From: Candidatus Multivorans sp.
GTDB taxonomy: Bacteria; Acidobacteriota; Thermoanaerobaculia; Multivoradales; Multivoraceae
Direction of reading: 5' to 3'
Length of the DNA: 64,000 bases
NCBI GenBank assembly: GCA_965262355.1
Contig: OZ253534.1
Location: 3,234,232 to 3,298,231 of the forward strand
Translations under genes and position numbers: made by a program
Part shown: positions 2,875-37,029 of the stretch, piece after piece
How the letters are laid out: each line of letters starts with the position of its first letter
Numbering within the stretch: position 1 is the stretch's first letter
Notes under the pieces: generated by a model
The model's database searches: none
What the model was told of the DNA's origin: nothing
What the model saw: the letters and a program-made list of their open reading frames with translations, nothing else

Positions 2875-3795
2875 ATGTATGCGGCGCTCGGCACGGCGCA
2901 GGAAGAACCCGCGAACGTTGCAGAGCTGCGCACGGCAACAGCAAGGGGAGATTCGGAAGGGGAAGCGCTGCTTGGGATCCTGTATGCCACTGGAAGCGGC
3001 GTTCAACAGAACGTGGCCGAAGCTGTGCGGTGGCTGAGTCGAGCAGCCGAGGATGGGCATGCGGTAGCCGTTGCCTTGATCGGAGCCAGCGTCTCCCTTG
3101 ACGACGTCTTCAAGTACACACCCGAGCAGCTTCGCCGCGCCGCTGAGAAAGCGAAGGAAGCGGGGAACAACGAAGCGGTTGAATACTACGAAAAGCGGGC
3201 TGAGCGGGCCGAGGCGAGCTTGGAGATCGTCCAGTTCCTGCGCCGTGCCGTAGAACAAGGCAACGCAACCGCGCAGGCCCTGTTGGGGCGCATCGGCATG
3301 CTGCGGAAGGACGATGAAGCCGATGATGATGAGGCCGAGAAGTGGATACGCCGCGCCGCGGAACAGGGTGATGCGTGGGGCAGCTACTACCTCGGCCTGA
3401 TGTACTACAAGGGACTGGGTGTCGAGGAGAAGACCCAGGAGGCGATTCGGTTGTGGAAACAAGCCGCTGACGGCGGCCTCAGTAGAGGCGCTGCCGAGAT
3501 CGGACTCGTCTACTTGCGCGGAATCGACGTAGAGCAGGATGAGGAGGAGGCGACACGCTGGTATCGCCGGGCTTCAGAACTGGACTATCTGGACACGAAC
3601 ATCCAGGGCACACATGAAGCTGCTTGTCCCGGTGCCGGGCAAGGCGAAGTGGGTTTGTCTGTCGGCTCGATGGAGCAGCTCTTCGCTAACGTCGAACTGG
3701 CTGATGCTGCCGAAGTTGCTCGGATACGTCTAGATGCTGAGGAGGGGAACGTCGATGCCCAGTTCATGATGGGGATGGTGGCGGGAGACAAAACG
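2875..3795 (+). pseudogene. Sel1-repeat (SLR/TPR-like) protein, 5' part, interrupted by the IS21-family element
   Basis: Repeated Sel1 units (GEALLGILYATGSGVQQNVAEAVRWLSRAAEDGH; WGSYYLGLMYYKGLGVEEKTQEAIRLWKQAADGG; ...). The reading frame is broken after ...MMGMVAGDKT at 3795 by the IS terminus. Confidence 0.8.
3789..3795. repeat. Target-site duplication (CAAAACG), left copy
   Basis: Identical 7-mer directly abuts both IS21 termini (3789-3795 and 6376-6382). Confidence 0.8.
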
Positions 3796-3896
3796 TGTTG
3801 GCAACGCTCGGAAAGTGAGCCACCCACCGTTTGGAAAGTGAGCCACCTCGGCCGTGTTGAGTGTACGCGAGTTTTCTCTCGTCGGTCCCCTTGAGT

Positions 3897-4011
3897 CAGT
3901 AGCAGTAGCGGCTGCGGTAGCTGTGGGAAACCGGTCTGCCGGTTTTCCAAGGCGGTGCGGGAAACGGTCTGCCGTTTTCCGCGGCGCCGGCAGCTTCCGC
4001 AGCCGGCCGCC
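3897..4011 (+). repeat. Structured ~115-nt repeat, copy D1 (inside the IS21 element, between the IR and the istB stop)
   Basis: About 89% identical by hand count to 31706-31822. An outer stem GGCTGCGGTAGCTG / CAGCTTCCGCAGCC encloses two tandem hairpins GGGAAACCGG-tctg-CCGGTTTTCC and GGGAAACGG-tctg-CCGTTTTCC. Confidence 0.75.
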
Positions 4012-4071
4012 GTTGCGGTCCGCTCCGCGGCGGCGCCGCGGCGGTCCGGTTGCGGGTGGTGGGGTCCGTAT

Positions 4072-4824
4072 TCACGAGGGGCTTCTCCGCAGCCGTGTCC
4101 GATAGGAGGAGCCCTTGGTGGCGAGGATGTGGGCGTGGTGGGAGAGGCGGTCGAGCAGAGCCGTGGTGAGCTTCTCGTCGCCGAATACGCGGACCCACTC
4201 GGAGAAGGCGAGGTTGGAGGTGACGATGGTCGAGCGTCGCTCGTAGCGGTCGGCGAAGACGTTGAAGAGCAGTTCGCCGCCGGCGCGGTCGAATGGCACG
4301 AAGCCGAGCTCGTCGCAGATCAGGAGATCGACCCGCTGAAGCCACTGCTGCAGGCGCCCCAGCTCCCGCTGATCGCGGGCTTCGATCAGGTCGCGGACGA
4401 GGTCGGAGGCCTTGCGGAACCAGACCCGGCGGCGGCGCTTCGCGGCCTCGATGCCCAGCGCGATGGCGAGATGCGTCTTGCCGGTGCCGATGGGTCCGAC
4501 CAGGACGACATCGTCTCCACGGTCGATGTAGTCGCAGGCCGCCAGCTCGCGCAGCTTCGGTTTGGACACTCCCTGTAGCGCCTGGAAGTCGATCTGCTCG
4601 AGCGTCTTGTGGTCGGGGAAGCGGGCCGCGCGCAGCCGGCGCTGGACGGTGCGGGCCTCACGGTCCCGGATCTCGGCCTCGAGCAGTTGCCACAGGTAGT
4701 CCTCGTAGTCCCACTGTGCGTCCTGGGCCTGACGCGCCCGCTGCTCGTAGTCGCGCAGCACGGAGGGCATCTTGAGCGTCTTGAGGCCCTCGGCGATGAC
4801 GGCTCTGCGCACCGCCCGGCTCAC
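4072..4824 (-). CDS. istB: IS21-family transposition helper ATPase IstB
   Basis: 250 aa. Walker A VLVGPIGTGKTHLAIALG. 4-nt overlap with istA. Typical IstB size. Confidence 0.9.
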   Translation of the reverse strand: MSRAVRRAVIAEGLKTLKMPSVLRDYEQRARQAQDAQWDYEDYLWQLLEAEIRDREARTVQRRLRAARFPDHKTLEQIDFQALQGVSKPKLRELAACDYIDRGDDVVLVGPIGTGKTHLAIALGIEAAKRRRRVWFRKASDLVRDLIEARDQRELGRLQQWLQRVDLLICDELGFVPFDRAGGELLFNVFADRYERRSTIVTSNLAFSEWVRVFGDEKLTTALLDRLSHHAHILATKGSSYRTRLRRSPS

Positions 4825-6263
4825 GATGCCGCCTCCTGAAGCAGCACGTCGAAGTCAGCGGCACGAGCGCTCTCGACCTCGTGGCGGCGGAGCGGCTCCG
4901 GCACCTCGATCCTGGAGGCCGGACTCCGCGGAGCGAGTCCCAGCAGGTCGAAGCGACCGGCGGTCAGGGCCTCCTCGAGTGCGGCGGCTACCTCCTCGCT
5001 GCCGTGGTCTGTGACCACGCTCAACAGCTTGGCGAAGAGCCGCGCCGTCTCCAGCGCGCCGTGCCGCAACTCCAGCATTCTCCACAGCTTGCGATAGGCC
5101 GGGCCGAGCTCTGCGAGCAGCTCCGGGGCCACCTGGCGCACCGCCTGAGGTTTCCGGGACAGCTCCTCGAAGTAGTGCGCGTAGCGCACCAGGCGCTGTC
5201 CCGGCCGCACCAGAGCGCAGCGGTACTCCGCGTCGCGACAGGAGAAGACGATGTCGCCCGTACCGACGCGGGCATGGACCTGGAGGCTCTTCCACCGCGA
5301 GGGAACCGAGTAGATCGCACCACCCAACTGCACCGTCGCCTGGCGCGACACCCGCACGATCCTGAGCTTCCTTGCCTCGAACACGGTCGGCGGCAGCTCG
5401 CGCAGAGCCGCCTGCTCCTCCTGCCACCGCGCACGGTTGCCGGGTGCCGCGTCGACCGAAGCCAGCACGCCCCGTGCGATCTCCTCCAGAGTGCGCCCTT
5501 GAGGCACCGGACTCATGTGCGCCAGACGGATTCCCTTGCCCCGCGACTCCACACTGCCCTTGTCGTGCCCCTCGCCGGGGCGGGCGAAGCACGGCTCGAA
5601 CAGGTAGTGGCTCACCAGTGCCTGGAATCGATCCGTCAACTGACGCTTGGCGCCCACCCGGCGCCGCACGGCCGCACTCAGATTGTCGTAGACCAGCCGC
5701 AGCGGCACGCCGCCCAGGTGTGCGAACGCCCGCACGTGGCCATCGAGAAACGCCACCTGGTCGCAGCGGTCGTACAGCCACACGAACGAACGGCCTGAGT
5801 ACGGCAGGTGCAGCAGGAACTTCCACACCCGGTGAGCCACACCGTCCTCCTCCACCGTCACCTCGAAGAAGTCCACCTGGCCACACTCGCCGGCACGGTG
5901 CACCAGCGGAATGAACGTCTCCTGCCGCTGACGCTTCCACTCCCGAACGTAGCTGCGAACCGTCGTGATCCCGACCTCGTAGCCATCCTCCAGCAACTGC
6001 CGATGCAGACGCGTACCCGTCAGCCGCTGCTTCGCCGTCGTCCGGCGAGACCACGTCCTCAGCAGCTCCTCCAGACGAGGCGCCATCCGCTCCGTCACCA
6101 GCCGCCGCCGCGGCCTGCTCTCCACCCGCCGCGGCGCGCTCTGATCCAGGTACTTGCGCACCGTGTTGCGGCTCACGCCGTGCTCCCGAGCCACCGAGCG
6201 TTGGCTCCGACCCTCCACCAGCACCTGGTGCCGAATAACATGTACCTGATCCATCCTCAGCAA
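4821..6263 (-). CDS. istA: IS21-family transposase IstA
   Basis: 480 aa. N-terminal HTH (RSQRSVAREHGVSRNTVRKYL) followed by an integrase-core-like region. Gene order istA-istB. Confidence 0.9.
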   Translation of the reverse strand: MLRMDQVHVIRHQVLVEGRSQRSVAREHGVSRNTVRKYLDQSAPRRVESRPRRRLVTERMAPRLEELLRTWSRRTTAKQRLTGTRLHRQLLEDGYEVGITTVRSYVREWKRQRQETFIPLVHRAGECGQVDFFEVTVEEDGVAHRVWKFLLHLPYSGRSFVWLYDRCDQVAFLDGHVRAFAHLGGVPLRLVYDNLSAAVRRRVGAKRQLTDRFQALVSHYLFEPCFARPGEGHDKGSVESRGKGIRLAHMSPVPQGRTLEEIARGVLASVDAAPGNRARWQEEQAALRELPPTVFEARKLRIVRVSRQATVQLGGAIYSVPSRWKSLQVHARVGTGDIVFSCRDAEYRCALVRPGQRLVRYAHYFEELSRKPQAVRQVAPELLAELGPAYRKLWRMLELRHGALETARLFAKLLSVVTDHGSEEVAAALEEALTAGRFDLLGLAPRSPASRIEVPEPLRRHEVESARAADFDVLLQEAAS

Positions 6264-6375
6264 GTCCTTCCTCCGATCGCGTTGGTCTACTGAACAAGAC
6301 CAAGTTACCGGCCAAGGGCCGAGGGTGGATCACTTTCCGAGCGTTGGGTGGCTCAGTTTCCGAGCGATGCCTCCA

Positions 6376-6382
6376 CAAAACG
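6376..6382. repeat. Target-site duplication (CAAAACG), right copy
   Basis: See the left copy. Removing 3796-6382 joins ...GDKT to PEEMAAATRWF... in frame. Confidence 0.8.
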
Positions 6383-7237
6383 CCCGAAGAGATGGCCGCG
6401 GCGACACGTTGGTTTCGTCTAGCCGCTGAACAGGGTCACGTCCTTGCTCAATGGCTCCTCGGAGCCGCCTATGGACCAGGGGAGGGTGGGGCGATTGACA
6501 GTGCTGAGTCTGTGCGGTGGTTTCGTTGTGCAGAATCGCAGTTGAGAGCGGCTGCCGAGCGCTCGAATCCTGACGCGCAGTACTCCCTTGGCTTTACCTA
6601 TGAGAACGGGCAAGGCGTGCTCAAGAATGTCCTTGAGGCCGAGCGCTGGTACCTCATGGCAGCGAGGCAGGGGCATGTCTATGCCCAAGCCAAGTTGGGG
6701 AACATTTACGAAACAGGCAGAATACGGGACGGAATCTCGAAGAACCTGACCGCCGCAGCGGAATGGCACCTCCGGGCTTCCAAGCAGGGAGACTCCACTT
6801 CGCAGCGCTATCTCGGACGCATGTATCTCCTCGGTCGCGGCGTTGAGGAAGACCACTTTGAGGCTGTGCGATGGTTGCGGATGGCTGCTGACCAAGGTAA
6901 CGATTTTGCGCGAAACGACCTAAATGGCATCCAGATTTGGCGTTGCTTCAAGGCCTACGACAGCGAAAAGGCGACATTGTTCAAGTTGTCGCGGTTTGAG
7001 AGCCCTCCCTCCCTTAGAGAACGCGGTCAGGTGATGGTGCGTACGGTGACGCACTCCGCCAAATCTCAAATCAATGGACTCAACCTCAGATGGGACTTCG
7101 GTCCCGACGGCGACGATAGCTACGGCTACGCCTTCGTCATTGAGCCTGATGGCACTGGCCTCTACTACGACTTCTCAGGCTCTACGGACGGTACTGCGAA
7201 ACCAAGGCAGGTTTTCGACTGCGAACTGTCGCCTTGA
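6383..7237 (+). pseudogene. Sel1-repeat protein, 3' part (continuation of 2875..3795)
   Basis: Sel1 units continue (AAATRWFRLAAEQGHVLAQWLLGAAY; AERWYLMAARQGHVYAQAKLGNIY; AVRWLRMAADQGNDFARNDL) and are followed by a ~110-aa non-Sel1 C-terminal region. The frame matches the 5' part once the IS plus one TSD copy is removed. Confidence 0.8.
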
Positions 7238-31600: not shown

Positions 31601-31656
31601 GGGCTCGCCGCTTCGCGGCATCGCCCGGATGCCGGCCAGAAGGCCGGCGCACCTGT
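31601..31656 (+). repeat. REP-like element family A, copy A2
   Basis: GGGCTCGCCGCTTCGCGGCATCGCCCGGATGCCGGCCAGAAGGCCGGCGCACCTGTAC contains the hairpin GCCGGCC-agaa-GGCCGGC. Confidence 0.65.
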
Positions 31657-31705
31657 ACCTTTCACGGGTGGATTCTGGTGGGTCGTTGAGAGAGTTGGAA
31701 TGGAC

Positions 31706-31822
31706 CAGTAGCCGCCGTGGCTGCGGTAGCTGTGGGAAACCGGCTTGCCGGTTTTCCAAGGTCCGGCGGAAAACGGTCTGCCGTTTTCCGCGGGGCCGGC
31801 AGCTTCCGCAGCCGAGACCGCC
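31706..31822 (+). repeat. Structured ~115-nt repeat, copy D2 (immediately 5' of the IS110 element)
   Basis: Aligns with 3897-4011 (12 mismatches in the first 109 nt by hand count) and has the same three-stem architecture. Confidence 0.75.
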
Positions 31823-32053
31823 GGTCGGTTTCGTCTCTGGTCTGCCGGAGTCACTGAAGGAAAGTCGGCAAGCAGCCAGGAGCGACCACCGGCGCACTGT
31901 GCTTCGAGCACCTAGCTGGGACCTGTGCCCTGGCTGCTTCGCCGCGTTGGACGCCCAGTGGAGAGTCAGTGCCTTAGAGCACCAGTACAGGTACGGGCAG
32001 GCAACGCGGCATGCCGACCAGACAACACTACCGCAAGGGAGAAGGAGGACGAG
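31823..32053 (+). ncRNA. Candidate IS110 bridge-RNA-encoding 5' non-coding end
   Basis: The position upstream of the recombinase is as in IS110-subgroup elements. Long-range pairing CGGCAAGCAGCCAGG (31866-31880) with CCTGGCTGCTT-c-GCCG (31929-31944). No covariation evidence is available. Confidence 0.3.
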
Positions 32054-33307
32054 ATGATCAGGACGTGGTTCGCCGGCGTGGACTGGGGGTCCGAGACCCA
32101 CCATGTGTGTTTGCTGGGTCGGGACGGCAAAGTGAGGGGGGAGCGGGCGTTCGACCACAGCGGCAAGGGACTTGCCGCTATGGCGGACTGGCTCCTTGGA
32201 CATACACGACCGACGCCTCCGGGCGAGATCGGCATCGCCATCGAGGTGCCGCACGGACCGGTCGTCGAGTGCCTCCTGGAGCGAGGCTTCGCCGTGTATT
32301 CCATCAACCCCAAGCAGCTCGACCGCTTCAGGGACCGCTTCTCCGTCGCCGGCGCCAAGGATGACCGCCGCGATGCACGGGTGCTCGCCGCCGCGCTTCG
32401 CACCGACCCTGAGTGCCTGAACCGCGTGCAACCATCCGATGCCGCCACCGTCATGCTGCGCGAGGTGTCCCGCGCCCGCAAGCAGTTGGTCGACCAGAAA
32501 AACCGCCTGGGGAACCAGGTCCGCGACCAGATCTGGCGCTACTGCCCGCAGTTTCTCGCCGTGGTCAAGAACGAGGTGTCGGCGCCCTTCGCGCTGGCCT
32601 TGTGGCGACTGGCGCCGACCCCCGACAAGGCTCGACGGGTGCGCGAAGCCACGCTCGCCAAGCTGCTCAAGGAACACCGCATCCGGCGCCTGACTGCCGC
32701 CCAACTGCGCGATCAACTGCGGGCCGAGCCGATCGCCGTTTCCCCGGACGCCGTAAAGGCCGCCGTCGAACACATAGGAATCCTCCGGCCGGTGCTCGAC
32801 ACCGTCTGCCGCCAACTCGCCGACGCCGAAAGGCGGCTGGAGCGGATGACCCGCAAACTCGAAACCGCGATCTCTCCGGAAGACGACGAAGACACGCCCA
32901 AGCCAAGCGACGCCGCCATCCTCAGGTCGCTGCCCGGACTCGGCATGGTCGGCCTCGCCACCCTGCTCTCCGAGGCCGATCAAAGCCTGGCCCGCAGAGA
33001 CTACGGGGCACTGCGTTGCCTCTGCGGAGTGGCGCCGGTGACCGTCAAGTCCGGCAAGAAGCTCATCGTCATGCGACGACTCGCCGCCAACGAACACCTC
33101 AGCGATGCCGCCTATCACTGGGGACGAGTCGCCATCCAGCATGACCCGATCAGCCGCGCCAAGTACGACGCCATGAAAGCCCAGGGGAAAACGCACGGAC
33201 GCGCCATCAGACAGCTCGTCGACCGACTCCTCGGCGTCGCGTGCGCCATGCTACGAGACCGCACTCTCTTCGACCCCAACAAGCGATGCCATGCCCAGGT
33301 CGCATGA
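32054..33307 (+). CDS. IS110-family (DEDD) transposase/recombinase
   Basis: ATG at 32054 after GAAGGAGG. MIRTWFAGVDWGSETHHVCLL... (DEDD_Tnp_IS110 N-terminus). C-terminal ...LRSLPGLGMVGLATLLSE... (Transposase_20-like HhH). Confidence 0.9.
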   Translation: MIRTWFAGVDWGSETHHVCLLGRDGKVRGERAFDHSGKGLAAMADWLLGHTRPTPPGEIGIAIEVPHGPVVECLLERGFAVYSINPKQLDRFRDRFSVAGAKDDRRDARVLAAALRTDPECLNRVQPSDAATVMLREVSRARKQLVDQKNRLGNQVRDQIWRYCPQFLAVVKNEVSAPFALALWRLAPTPDKARRVREATLAKLLKEHRIRRLTAAQLRDQLRAEPIAVSPDAVKAAVEHIGILRPVLDTVCRQLADAERRLERMTRKLETAISPEDDEDTPKPSDAAILRSLPGLGMVGLATLLSEADQSLARRDYGALRCLCGVAPVTVKSGKKLIVMRRLAANEHLSDAAYHWGRVAIQHDPISRAKYDAMKAQGKTHGRAIRQLVDRLLGVACAMLRDRTLFDPNKRCHAQVA

Positions 33308-33500
33308 CCTACCTGACCCACAGCAGCCTCCCCAAGACCACTTGCTAAAGGGTGGAGAGTCCCAGTGGTCCCCCCTGAGCCCCGACCAGGCAGGCGGGTG
33401 TAACCGCCGCACCGCTGCGCGCCGCTCCGCGCCGCGCCGCTTACGGGGCTCGATTCGGTACAGTGAGGGTCATGACCTGCCGCATGAACGGGGCGGTCGC

Positions 33501-35805: not shown

Positions 35806-37029
35806 ATGGCCGACGCCGGATCGGTGCGGCTGAGCGTGCCCGGGAAGGTGATCCTCCTGGGCGAGCACGCTGCCGTGTACGGCAGGCCGGCGGTGGTCGC
35901 GGCGGTCGATCGCCGGCTGGAAGTGGAGGCGCGTCTGGGGCCAGCGGGTAGCGGGTTGGAGCGCGGCCGGGTGTATCTCGACCTTCCCGACATCGATGTC
36001 CTGGAGGAGCGTACGTGGAGGGAGGTGGAGGAGTTCACCGATGACGCGCGTCGGCGCTGGCGCGCGTACAAGACCGGCAACGAGCCCTTCCGATCGGATC
36101 GTGAACGCTCTGCCCTGGTCCGCATCGCGGTTGGGGAGGCGCTGGCGTCGCTGGCGCCGGCGGCGTCAGCGCGATTGCGGGAGCGGTCGCTCGAACTGCG
36201 GCTGCGGTCGGCGATTCCGGTCGGCGCCGGGTTGGGCAGTTCGGCTGCGGCCGCGGTGGGCGTGGTCGCTGCCGTGCGGGCGGTGGCCGGTGGCTTCAGC
36301 CAGCCGGAGCCGGATGCCGGCCAGAAGGCCGGCGCACCCAGTGCGGAGCCGGATGCCGGCCAGAAGGCCGGCGCACCCAGTGCGGAGCGGGGTGCACTCA
36401 GTGAGGTGTTGCTTCCCGGCGTAGGCGACGAACTTGCGGCGATCGAGTCCGCGGCGCTCGAGGTCGAGCGGCGGCAGCATGGGTTCCCGTCGGGCATCGA
36501 CAGCGGCACCGTGCTGCGCGGCGGCGTCCTCCTCGTGCGGCGCGAGGGAGGGGAGCTGCGCTTCGACGACCTGCCGCGGCCGGGGTGGCTTCGCCGTGAC
36601 ATCGCGATCGTCGACAGTGGCGTACCGGAACAGACCACGGGCGCTGTCGTGGCGAGTGTGCGCCTGCGCTACGAGCGGGATCCCGATCGGGTGTCGGCTG
36701 TGTTCGATCGCATGGAGACGGCGGTCGATGAGTTCCGGGCGGCGCTCGCCTCCGGCGGCAAGCAACGGGCGGAGGCGGCGATAACCGCGGCGCACTACGC
36801 TCTCGTCGACCTCGGCGTCGTGCCGCCGGGGGTGGCCTGGCGGATCGGTCGGGTCGAGATGGCGGACGGCGCTGCCAAGGTCTCGGGCGCCGGGGCGCTC
36901 GAGGGGGAGTCGGCTGGAGCGCTGGTCTGCATGCTCGGGCGACGGGATCCGGGTGCGGTCGAAGGCTTGTCGGATCTCGCGCCGGTCGATGCGCCCATCG
37001 GCGCCGAGGGCCTGCGGTTCGAGGACTGA
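35806..37029 (+). CDS. mvk: Mevalonate kinase (GHMP family) carrying an in-frame repeat insertion
   Basis: VPGKVILLGEHAAVYGRPAVVAAVD, GHMP motif IPVGAGLGSSAAAAVGVV, HGFPSGIDSG. 407 aa including a 26-aa tandem repeat insert. Confidence 0.85.
   Translation: MADAGSVRLSVPGKVILLGEHAAVYGRPAVVAAVDRRLEVEARLGPAGSGLERGRVYLDLPDIDVLEERTWREVEEFTDDARRRWRAYKTGNEPFRSDRERSALVRIAVGEALASLAPAASARLRERSLELRLRSAIPVGAGLGSSAAAAVGVVAAVRAVAGGFSQPEPDAGQKAGAPSAEPDAGQKAGAPSAERGALSEVLLPGVGDELAAIESAALEVERRQHGFPSGIDSGTVLRGGVLLVRREGGELRFDDLPRPGWLRRDIAIVDSGVPEQTTGAVVASVRLRYERDPDRVSAVFDRMETAVDEFRAALASGGKQRAEAAITAAHYALVDLGVVPPGVAWRIGRVEMADGAAKVSGAGALEGESAGALVCMLGRRDPGAVEGLSDLAPVDAPIGAEGLRFED
36307..36384 (+). repeat. REP-like family A, two tandem 39-nt units in frame inside mvk (copy A3)
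   Basis: GAGCCGGATGCCGGCCAGAAGGCCGGCGCACCCAGTGCG occurs twice, identical, encoding EPDAGQKAGAPSA x2. Same core as the intergenic copies A2 and A5. Confidence 0.85.

Follow-up and report, generated by a model that had tools for sequence, protein, structure and literature searches.

A conserved, strand-specific three-way junction inside IS110, IS21 and other transposase families, mainly in Acidobacteriota

Background

Stable RNAs near the ends of insertion sequences (ISs)—RNA-OUT of IS10, the 5′ stem-loop of IS200, and RNA-C of IS30—control read-in or antisense transcripts, and IS-encoded structured RNAs such as bridge RNAs and omega RNAs have recently proved to be functional machines. The published bridge-RNA consensus consists of a 5′ stem-loop followed by a target-binding and a donor-binding loop (PMC11208160). 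The ssr9 RNA of ISPpu9 is carried by a REP-targeting IS110-family element; it follows the gene, is equipped with a promoter and A′/B′ boxes of its own, and is confined to a few strains of Pseudomonas putida (Pares-Guillen et al. 2025, PMC12288879). Finally, the Breaker-lab surveys describe MRSC and REP/BIME-type repeats, which are multi-copy, covarying, GC-rich, and associated with transposases, and whose nature as RNA or DNA is open (PMC11109978).

Here, we describe a module that shares features with each of these systems and differs from all of them. It occurs twice in the window, by which we mean the whole 64,000-nt stretch of DNA analysed: copy A lies within an IS21-family element and copy B within an IS110-family element. 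Copy B resembles the bridge RNA of IS621 (Durrant et al. 2024, PMC11208160) in that it occupies the non-coding left end of an IS110 element, where two guide loops follow directly on the same strand; however, it is a 95-nt three-way junction that has no guide loops and precedes the small 5′ hairpin, and it is missing in a close relative while being present in ISs with DDE transposases and on plasmids. As with ssr9, it is an optional RNA-type module on a REP-targeting IS110-family element, and the MITEs of another genome (G034) recall MITEPpu9 in being stand-alone copies produced by recombination at alternative ends (PMC12288879), but the present module sits in a putative 5′ leader, lacks end boxes of its own, and extends over several IS families and phyla. 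The traits listed above for MRSC and REP/BIME-type repeats apply to it as well, except that in this genome it is not dispersed extragenically but lies inside ISs at a fixed position and polarity; MRSC-65-2, moreover, is one long stem rather than a three-way junction. RNA-OUT of IS10, the IS200 stem-loop, and RNA-C of IS30 are family-specific sequences, whereas the module is one homologous cassette found with at least five transposase families.

No family in Rfam 15 matched the module, either in a scan of the window, where none reached its gathering threshold, or for seven divergent members, none of which gave a match at E ≤ 0.1, and literature searches found no earlier description of it. The module is thus a covarying structure absent from Rfam 15 and from the published papers searched. 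The best sub-threshold match, at 31667–31815, was to the Pseudomonas sRNA P4 (RF01681; 22 bits against a gathering threshold of 37, E 0.005), probably a chance likeness of GC-rich multi-hairpin folds.

Results

Anatomy of the module

The two copies and their helices are as follows:

3897–4011, plus strand: module copy A, in the IS21 element (fold, z = −6.5; 22 copies in IS21 elements and fragments)
3910–3923 with 3991–4004, plus strand: outer stem P1 of copy A
3925–3948, plus strand: hairpin P2 of copy A
3951–3988, plus strand: hairpin P3 of copy A
31706–31822, plus strand: module copy B, in the IS110 element (fold; 17 identical copies in the genome; pair counts)
31706–31718, plus strand: GTAG/CGY tract of copy B
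31719–31732 with 31800–31813, plus strand: outer stem P1 of copy B, 14 bp with one U-U mismatch
31734–31757, plus strand: hairpin P2 of copy B
31760–31797, plus strand: hairpin P3 of copy B

The cores align without gaps and are 89% identical over 109 nt, in agreement with the coordinates and the 12 mismatches given in a preliminary description of this DNA, and homology between the copies ends abruptly at either side of the fold. Minimum free energy (MFE) folding recovers the arrangement proposed there, in which a 14-bp outer stem with one mismatch (P1) surrounds two mutually similar hairpins (P2 and P3), giving a three-way junction of about 95 nt. Predicted energies are −79 kcal/mol for copy B (z = −6.2) and −77.8 for copy A (z = −6.5), and 0 of 200 dinucleotide shuffles folded as well as the module copies. 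Every helix contains a GGGA/UUCC step with a G-U wobble, and the consensus over members can be written cGnCGnCGgg-cUGUGGgagCUG-U-GGgaaacgc..gcguuuUCC-AA-g..GnGGgaancgc..gcgnuUUCC..-Gg-CaGcuUCCAcaG. Loops vary among members in both size and sequence and include UNCG- or CUUG-type loops, while P1 holds conserved CTG triplets. Between the two copies, the change from GGGAAACGG to GGAAAACGG turns a G-U pair into an A-U pair, as the earlier remark on improved pairing had it.

Covariation and folding strand

Compensatory change is abundant in two sets of sequences. Among 41 family- and order-level members, 96.4% of cells are paired and 31 of the 40 pairs have changed on both sides, with a covariation score of 0.394 against 0.05–0.07 for slid-partner controls on the same 41 sequences; 62 independent metagenome sequences give 95.6% paired cells, 30 of 40 pairs changed on both sides, and a score of 0.469 against 0.04–0.10, these pair counts being somewhat inflated by the fitting of the alignments to the covariance model and the slid controls being drawn from the same alignments. 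One genome (G181) is represented by a single row (L078) in the alignments A3 and A4 and in the tree described below, and two loci of another (L094 and L118 of G233) are only listed; none of the conclusions depends on these two genomes alone.

Paired cells also carry information about strand. G-U or U-G combinations fill 139 cells compared with 3 for A-C or C-A, and 33 compared with 3 once the three conserved wobble columns are left out; the folding strand is therefore fixed. In addition, the sense strand is the more stable of the two in each of 41 copies, with a mean advantage of 14.2 kcal/mol. In IS21, IS3, IS256, and IS481 contexts, this strand is antisense to the transposase gene. Together, these data support a conserved, strand-specific folded element with strong covariation. 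A small structured RNA had been among the suggestions of the preliminary description: the conserved fold and its strand bear that suggestion out in part, while transcription is weakly hinted at by the RNA-library contigs described below.

Copies in this genome and distribution

The complete 5.44-Mb genome holds 39 module copies, which are not parts of one long duplication. Seventeen, all identical, are of type B, each inside a 1.71-kb IS110-family element, and the other 22 belong to type A (7 of them variants or fragments, the remaining 15 identical), each inside a 2.58-kb IS21 element or its fragments; 0 of the 39 are free copies outside these elements. A free MITE or a REP/BIME repeat is accordingly rejected for this genome, whose own REP unit is a different sequence. 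The module is optional: two other IS110-type genes of this genome (at C1 1801041 and 4501067), about 16 rve-type genes, and a second IS21 lineage (C1 2006911, IstB 38% identical) are all without it.

In the genus, 23 of 41 species have a BLAST match to the module, as do three further genera of the family, and it is 87–92% identical beside IS110 recombinases that are only 53–75% identical and beside IstA proteins with identities as low as 61%; where the recombinases of IS110 elements share only 53–56% identity, it is still about 90% identical. Searches with the covariance model gave matches in 59 of 151 genomes of the order (35 of 63 genera and 11 of 12 families), in 24 of 151 genomes of the phylum Acidobacteriota, and in 2 of 151 and 3 of 151 genomes of samples around an Actinomycetota and a Dehalococcoidia metagenome-assembled genome (MAG), respectively. 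The matches outside the phylum are genuine and include low-GC versions. A scan of metagenomes for the exact core placed the module on at least 120 contigs, and sponge MAGs are among the relatives of the source genome. No blastn match to the module was found in a plasmid collection, and no exact core in viral contigs.

The IS110 element, its target, and its bridge RNA

The features of the IS110 element and its target are listed here in order of position:

31601–31653, plus strand: left part of the REP-like target unit (hairpin GCCGGCC-AGAA-GGCCGGC, then GCA-CC)
31654–33362, plus strand: IS110-family element of ~1.71 kb (17 copies, >99.4% identical; copy comparison, empty sites, DEDD_Tnp_IS110 and Transposase_20 domains)
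31654–31705, plus strand: left-end leader, with CCTGTACC as the donor end
31824–31869, plus strand: small hairpin between module and guide loops (MFE fold)
31870–31939, plus strand: bridge-RNA target-binding loop (fold; its strings match the target known from empty sites)
31941–32010, plus strand: bridge-RNA donor-binding loop (fold; conserved across relatives)
32054–33307, plus strand: IS110-family DEDD recombinase gene (ATG at 32054, GGAGGA just upstream)
33363–33385: right part of the REP-like target unit (CAGT..., after 33362)

Comparing the 17 copies with empty (uninterrupted) target sites fixed the left boundary at 31652–31654, with the core dinucleotide CC at 31652–31653 and again at 33361–33362, and the element reads CC-TGTACC (from 31654) ... 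GGAGAGT-CC. The module had been placed at the IS110 junction in the preliminary description; this boundary instead puts copy B 52 nt inside the element, within a 400-nt non-coding left end (31654–32053). The same empty sites dispose of the idea that the module is a preferred IS110 target, given that the junctions lie in ...GGCGCA-CC-CAGT... and the true target is a REP-like unit, ...GGCCGGCGCA-CC-CAGT..., unlike the module in sequence. This unit has about 30 occurrences under a strict pattern and is the specific insertion target of this IS110. It consists of the GCCGGCC-AGAA-GGCCGGC hairpin followed by GCACCCAGT and often lies within a longer palindromic element with CTAGGAGCTTGCGCGGCAGAA termini; tandem units occur near 36309–36390 of the window (genome 3270540–3270620).

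Downstream of copy B, the left end has the published bridge-RNA layout (PMC11208160), and both guide units take the form of stem, internal loop, and stem. In the target loop, CCGGCGCAC at 31889 equals the left flank of the target and is followed by a distal hairpin, GTGCU-UCG-AGCAC, and then by CUAGCUGGG, which includes CUGGG and is complementary to the right flank, CCCAG; in the donor loop, GTGGAGAGTC (at 31958) is identical to the right-end tip, and GTACAGG at 31985 complements the left-end start, CCTGTAC. By analogy with the published consensus, the hairpin at 31824–31869 is likely the equivalent of the bridge-RNA 5′ stem-loop. The module itself has no internal guide loops and no matches to target or donor. 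The earlier statement that it matches no IS110 end feature thus needs qualifying, given that copy B occupies the non-coding left end, immediately before the bridge-RNA loops. In the leader that precedes it, TACCTT (31656–31661) could possibly act as the −10 element of a promoter formed at the circle junction, with TTGCTA of the right end as its partner; a consensus promoter scan was negative.

A relative with a 59% identical recombinase (loci L207 and L217) retains the left-end start and both loops but has no module, with only about 45 nt between the element end and the first loop. The module is therefore an insert in the bridge-RNA 5′ leader that the IS110 architecture can do without, and it is not conserved with the recombinase lineage. 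We also rejected the module as a set of guide loops, the guide strings being downstream of it at 31889, 31958, and 31985 and the loops of this relative being intact in its absence. In the same two loci (G046 contig 3, ~1250–1500), the donor loop is conserved, the strings of the target loop differ (GGGTCCC and CTGAAAAGG), and the element has another flank, which is a natural case of bridge-RNA retargeting within one clade.

Contigs from four sponge metatranscriptome runs cover 31641–31929, 31737–31894, 31796–31990, and parts between. Module and guide loops are thus joined on single RNA-library contigs, a weak hint of transcription given that these contigs do not show strand or ends and may derive from DNA; they stop at 31990, short of the recombinase coding sequence, and absence from contigs is uninformative. 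In one run (X3), a contig corresponding to 31769–31878 has 101 different letters in place of 108 nt, from the second hairpin through the small 5′ hairpin, and is a variant left end of a related strain. The arrangement as a whole is best explained, from sequence and predicted fold, if the IS110 transcript for bridge RNA and transposase has copy B as its 5′ leader domain, outside the guide loops.

The IS21 element

Copy A lies in the following element:

3796–6375, minus strand: IS21-family element of 2,580 bp (TG...CA ends; 17 full copies plus deleted copies and fragments)
6263–4821, minus strand: istA
4824–4072, minus strand: istB
3809–3848, plus strand: right-end terminal direct repeats, GGAAAGTGAGCCACC twice (occurring also in IS21 relatives)

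It sits between the istB stop (4072) and the terminal repeats (3809–3848) and folds on the strand opposite istB. The module was rejected as the terminal repeats themselves, the sites of IstA, being internal to the GGAAAGTGAGCCACC repeats and present at one end only. The element is flanked by a 7-bp target duplication, CAAAACG, at 3789–3795 and 6376–6382, which is intact and therefore indicates a recent insertion. The interrupted gene encodes Sel1 repeats (window 2875–7237), with Sel1 domains on both sides, in open reading frames at 2875–3894 and 6344–7237. All IS21 copies with IstB at least 82% identical carry the module, the lineage without it is only 38–39% identical, and no clean pair of presence and absence was found for IS21. 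A CU-rich tract (CCUCC-like, or GGAGG on the transposase strand) often lies 15–45 nt upstream of P1 in IS3- and IS21-type contexts, for example at 3871–3896 of the window and at loci L072, L077, L084, and L089.

Position and polarity across IS families

Where element termini could be fixed by copy pairs, the module lies 40, 43, 52–54, 101, or 156 nt inside, with its 5′ side outward. Across genomes, it is found in sense upstream of IS110 and IS256 genes, and on the opposite strand just past the stop codon of IstB, IS3-type, IS481, HTH-type, and some IS110-type genes, as well as of one traG-type and one repA gene; distances past stop codons, traG and repA included, are 0–115 nt. One solo module (L070) lies between convergent host genes, 63 nt downstream of a host gene and in sense. 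Other apparent solo copies (L035, L038, L046, L048, and L051) are really truncated IS110 left ends or breaks at contig ends, and the ‘integrase’ context of L080 is actually an IS21 right end.

Among 43 independent metagenome copies with a recognisable transposase gene within 700 nt, 40 obey the same polarity: 37 are in the 3′-antisense arrangement (10 with IS3, 10 with IS256, 8 with IS481, 7 with IS21, and 2 with IS110) and 3 in the 5′-sense arrangement, with the remaining 3, at 400–700 nt, breaking the rule. Apart from these 3 of 43, the module always lies a few tens of nucleotides inside an element end with its 5′ side endward.

Exchange between families and derived MITEs

In a maximum-likelihood tree of 41 modules, branching does not track IS family, and the IS21 label changes at least four times on well-supported branches. 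One clade (support 99/98) unites IS3, IS21, and IS110-type modules and another (93/89) unites those of IS256 and IS3, while a 98/99 branch separates the modules of this bacterial family, from both IS110 and IS21, from the IS21 modules of other families. At locus L083, the IstB C-terminus is 83% identical to that in the window, yet the module belongs to a different subtype.

Genome G034 contains at least 12 units of ~175 bp that run from the IS110 left end to ...GGCAGCTT-CC-C(A/G)GT. They are bounded by CC-TGTACC ... CTT-CC-CAGT inside the REP target, the right half of which follows, and they end within the 3′ strand of P1, at the pseudo right end GCAGCTT-CC; one copy instead has the true right-end tip, GAGTCC-CAGTG. 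At the thresholds used, this genome gave no match to either transposase. The units are MITEs of IS110 origin, formed with a cryptic end that lies within the module. In the IS21 copy, by contrast, homology begins at the module and not at the IS110 end, so that this copy is not a MITE insertion. The earlier suggestion of a MITE- or REP-type element consequently fails in this genome, with 39 of 39 copies inside IS110 or IS21, and holds in part elsewhere, in these MITEs and in variants that cross families.

Promoter, terminator, and other scans

No sigma-70 consensus promoter was found, nor any terminator-like site at either module of the window on either strand. In the order-wide alignment, no U-tract follows P1 in any lineage, and a canonical intrinsic terminator was rejected on this basis, the GC-rich fold notwithstanding. 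No conserved promoter occurs at a fixed distance upstream of the module; a weak enrichment of TAT, 15–30 nt upstream, is seen in roughly one context in three, and several of these contexts are related. The folding strand shows no bias with respect to chromosomal replication (6/17 and 8/19). We also rejected a mimic of CRISPR repeats, as in RNA anti-CRISPRs, on the grounds that the host repeat, ..CCGGGGCG-TTCG-CGCCCCGG..ATTGAAGC, is unlike the module arms. The array from which this repeat comes (genome C1 ~4,160,340) has at least 60 repeats with CCGGGGCG-TTCG-CGCCCCGG that end in ATTGAAGC.

Discussion

From its identity and anatomy, we consider it highly probable that the module is a discrete, portable, strand-specific three-way junction carried as an optional accessory by mobile elements, mainly in Acidobacteriota. 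As to mechanism, we tentatively propose a cis-acting RNA that serves as a boundary or leader module. Such a module would act as RNA on transcripts that start at or cross the element boundary inward, might give them a very stable structured 5′ domain, with effects on stability or processing, and could in this way uncouple the interior of the element from outside transcription. The lack of a promoter at a fixed distance fits an element acting on incoming or end-initiated transcripts. Several observations sit poorly with this proposal: in IS3, IS21, IS256, and IS481, inward RNA would be antisense to the transposase gene, and an IS would have no obvious reason to stabilise it; if the module blocks read-in, the IS110 layout needs read-through, so one mechanism may not suit both contexts; the polarity is broken by 3 of 43 copies; and other ISs of the same genome manage without the module. 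The IS110 layout argues against an efficient terminator and the antisense layout in ISs with DDE transposases against a simple stabiliser, and these opposed arrangements leave us with only modest confidence in the mechanism. Taken whole, the combination of a portable element with a boundary or leader function is plausible but falls a little short of probable.

It is instead conceivable, if unlikely, that the module is a selfish or neutral passenger—a palindromic unit that spreads among co-resident elements by recombination or IS110-type mobilisation, does nothing for its carrier, and persists only where an IS tolerates extra DNA, either past the last stop codon, ahead of the terminal repeat, or within a 5′ leader. 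Its absence from the IS110 relative, the second IS21 lineage, and other ISs of this genome would be expected of a passenger, as would the crossing of variants between IS families and the IS110-derived MITEs of G034 with their pseudo right end inside P1, and ISPpu9/MITEPpu9 offer a precedent for an RNA-gene module riding an IS110 element (PMC12288879). A passenger, however, accounts poorly for strong purifying selection on the fold and on specific wobble pairs over three phyla, for a module ~90% identical between IS110 elements whose recombinases are 53–56% identical, and for inward polarity in 40 of 43 copies, which insertion at tolerated sites alone would not predict; nor did the IS21 copy, which does not start at an IS110 end, arrive as a MITE.

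Three further readings concern what the structure itself might do. A unidirectional terminator or insulator against RNA polymerase entering from flanking genes, which would keep the transposase gene free of antisense transcription at 3′ ends and guard against unscheduled activation at 5′ ends, would explain the inward polarity at both kinds of end, the location 0–115 nt past stop codons including those of traG and repA, and the solo copy that lies in sense between convergent genes, 63 nt past a host gene, and it would need a very stable fold and no promoter of its own; we nevertheless regard it as distinctly unlikely, because the U-tract is missing in all lineages, because in IS110, with the likely junction promoter on one side of it and the bridge RNA on the other, it would silence an element that has 17 near-identical copies, and because RNA-library contigs read through the module. 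We think it very unlikely that the device is one of single-stranded DNA, offering ssi-like priming or protein loading during copy-out-paste-in transposition or on transferred plasmid strands. The carriers are mostly families with replicated circular intermediates (IS3, IS21, IS256, and IS481), together with the plasmid repA and traG contexts, and strand specificity, the three-hairpin architecture, the conserved CTG triplets of P1, and independence from a promoter would all fit. IS110 carriers, on the other hand, move by recombination without replication, the folding strand is unbiased relative to chromosomal replication, both the conserved G-U wobbles and loops of the UNCG or CUUG type would be more usual in RNA, and the module is present on RNA-library contigs. 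That the module is the bridge RNA proper, or the IS110 insertion target of the earlier junction idea, is extremely improbable: its location speaks for the former, bridge RNAs being encoded in the left end of IS110, but guide loops and guide matches are lacking, the relative with intact loops lacks the module, and IS3, IS21, IS256, and IS481, which carry it, have no bridge recombinase; the actual target is the REP unit.

Returning to the boundary or leader proposal, we note that across a whole IS110 clade the leaders of natural bridge RNAs appear, on this evidence, to have the module as their 5′ domain, and that in five IS families it recurs with the same polarity at a fixed place. Should it stabilise, process, or insulate transcripts, it would be a reusable boundary part traded among mobile elements and could matter for bridge-recombinase engineering through RNA stability or expression. 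Further-reaching, and in our view doubtful, is the idea of a new class of portable accessory device, in which one homologous RNA or single-stranded DNA cassette, moved horizontally among at least five transposase families, plasmids, conjugative elements, and at least three phyla, would engage host machinery that is itself conserved (such as an RNase, the priming apparatus, or RNA polymerase through pausing or processive antitermination) to control boundary crossing, and would in IS110 be an unrecognised functional domain of natural bridge RNAs. Were the module a passenger only, it would be a clear case of a structured repeat parasitising transposons, with MITE formation through a cryptic IS110 end in the fold.

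One copy in this genome (C1 2107011–2107103), in an IS21 fragment, lacks the segment between the hairpins and retains a single hybrid hairpin, which looks like the outcome of recombination between the repeated GGGAAAC/GTTTTCC arms.
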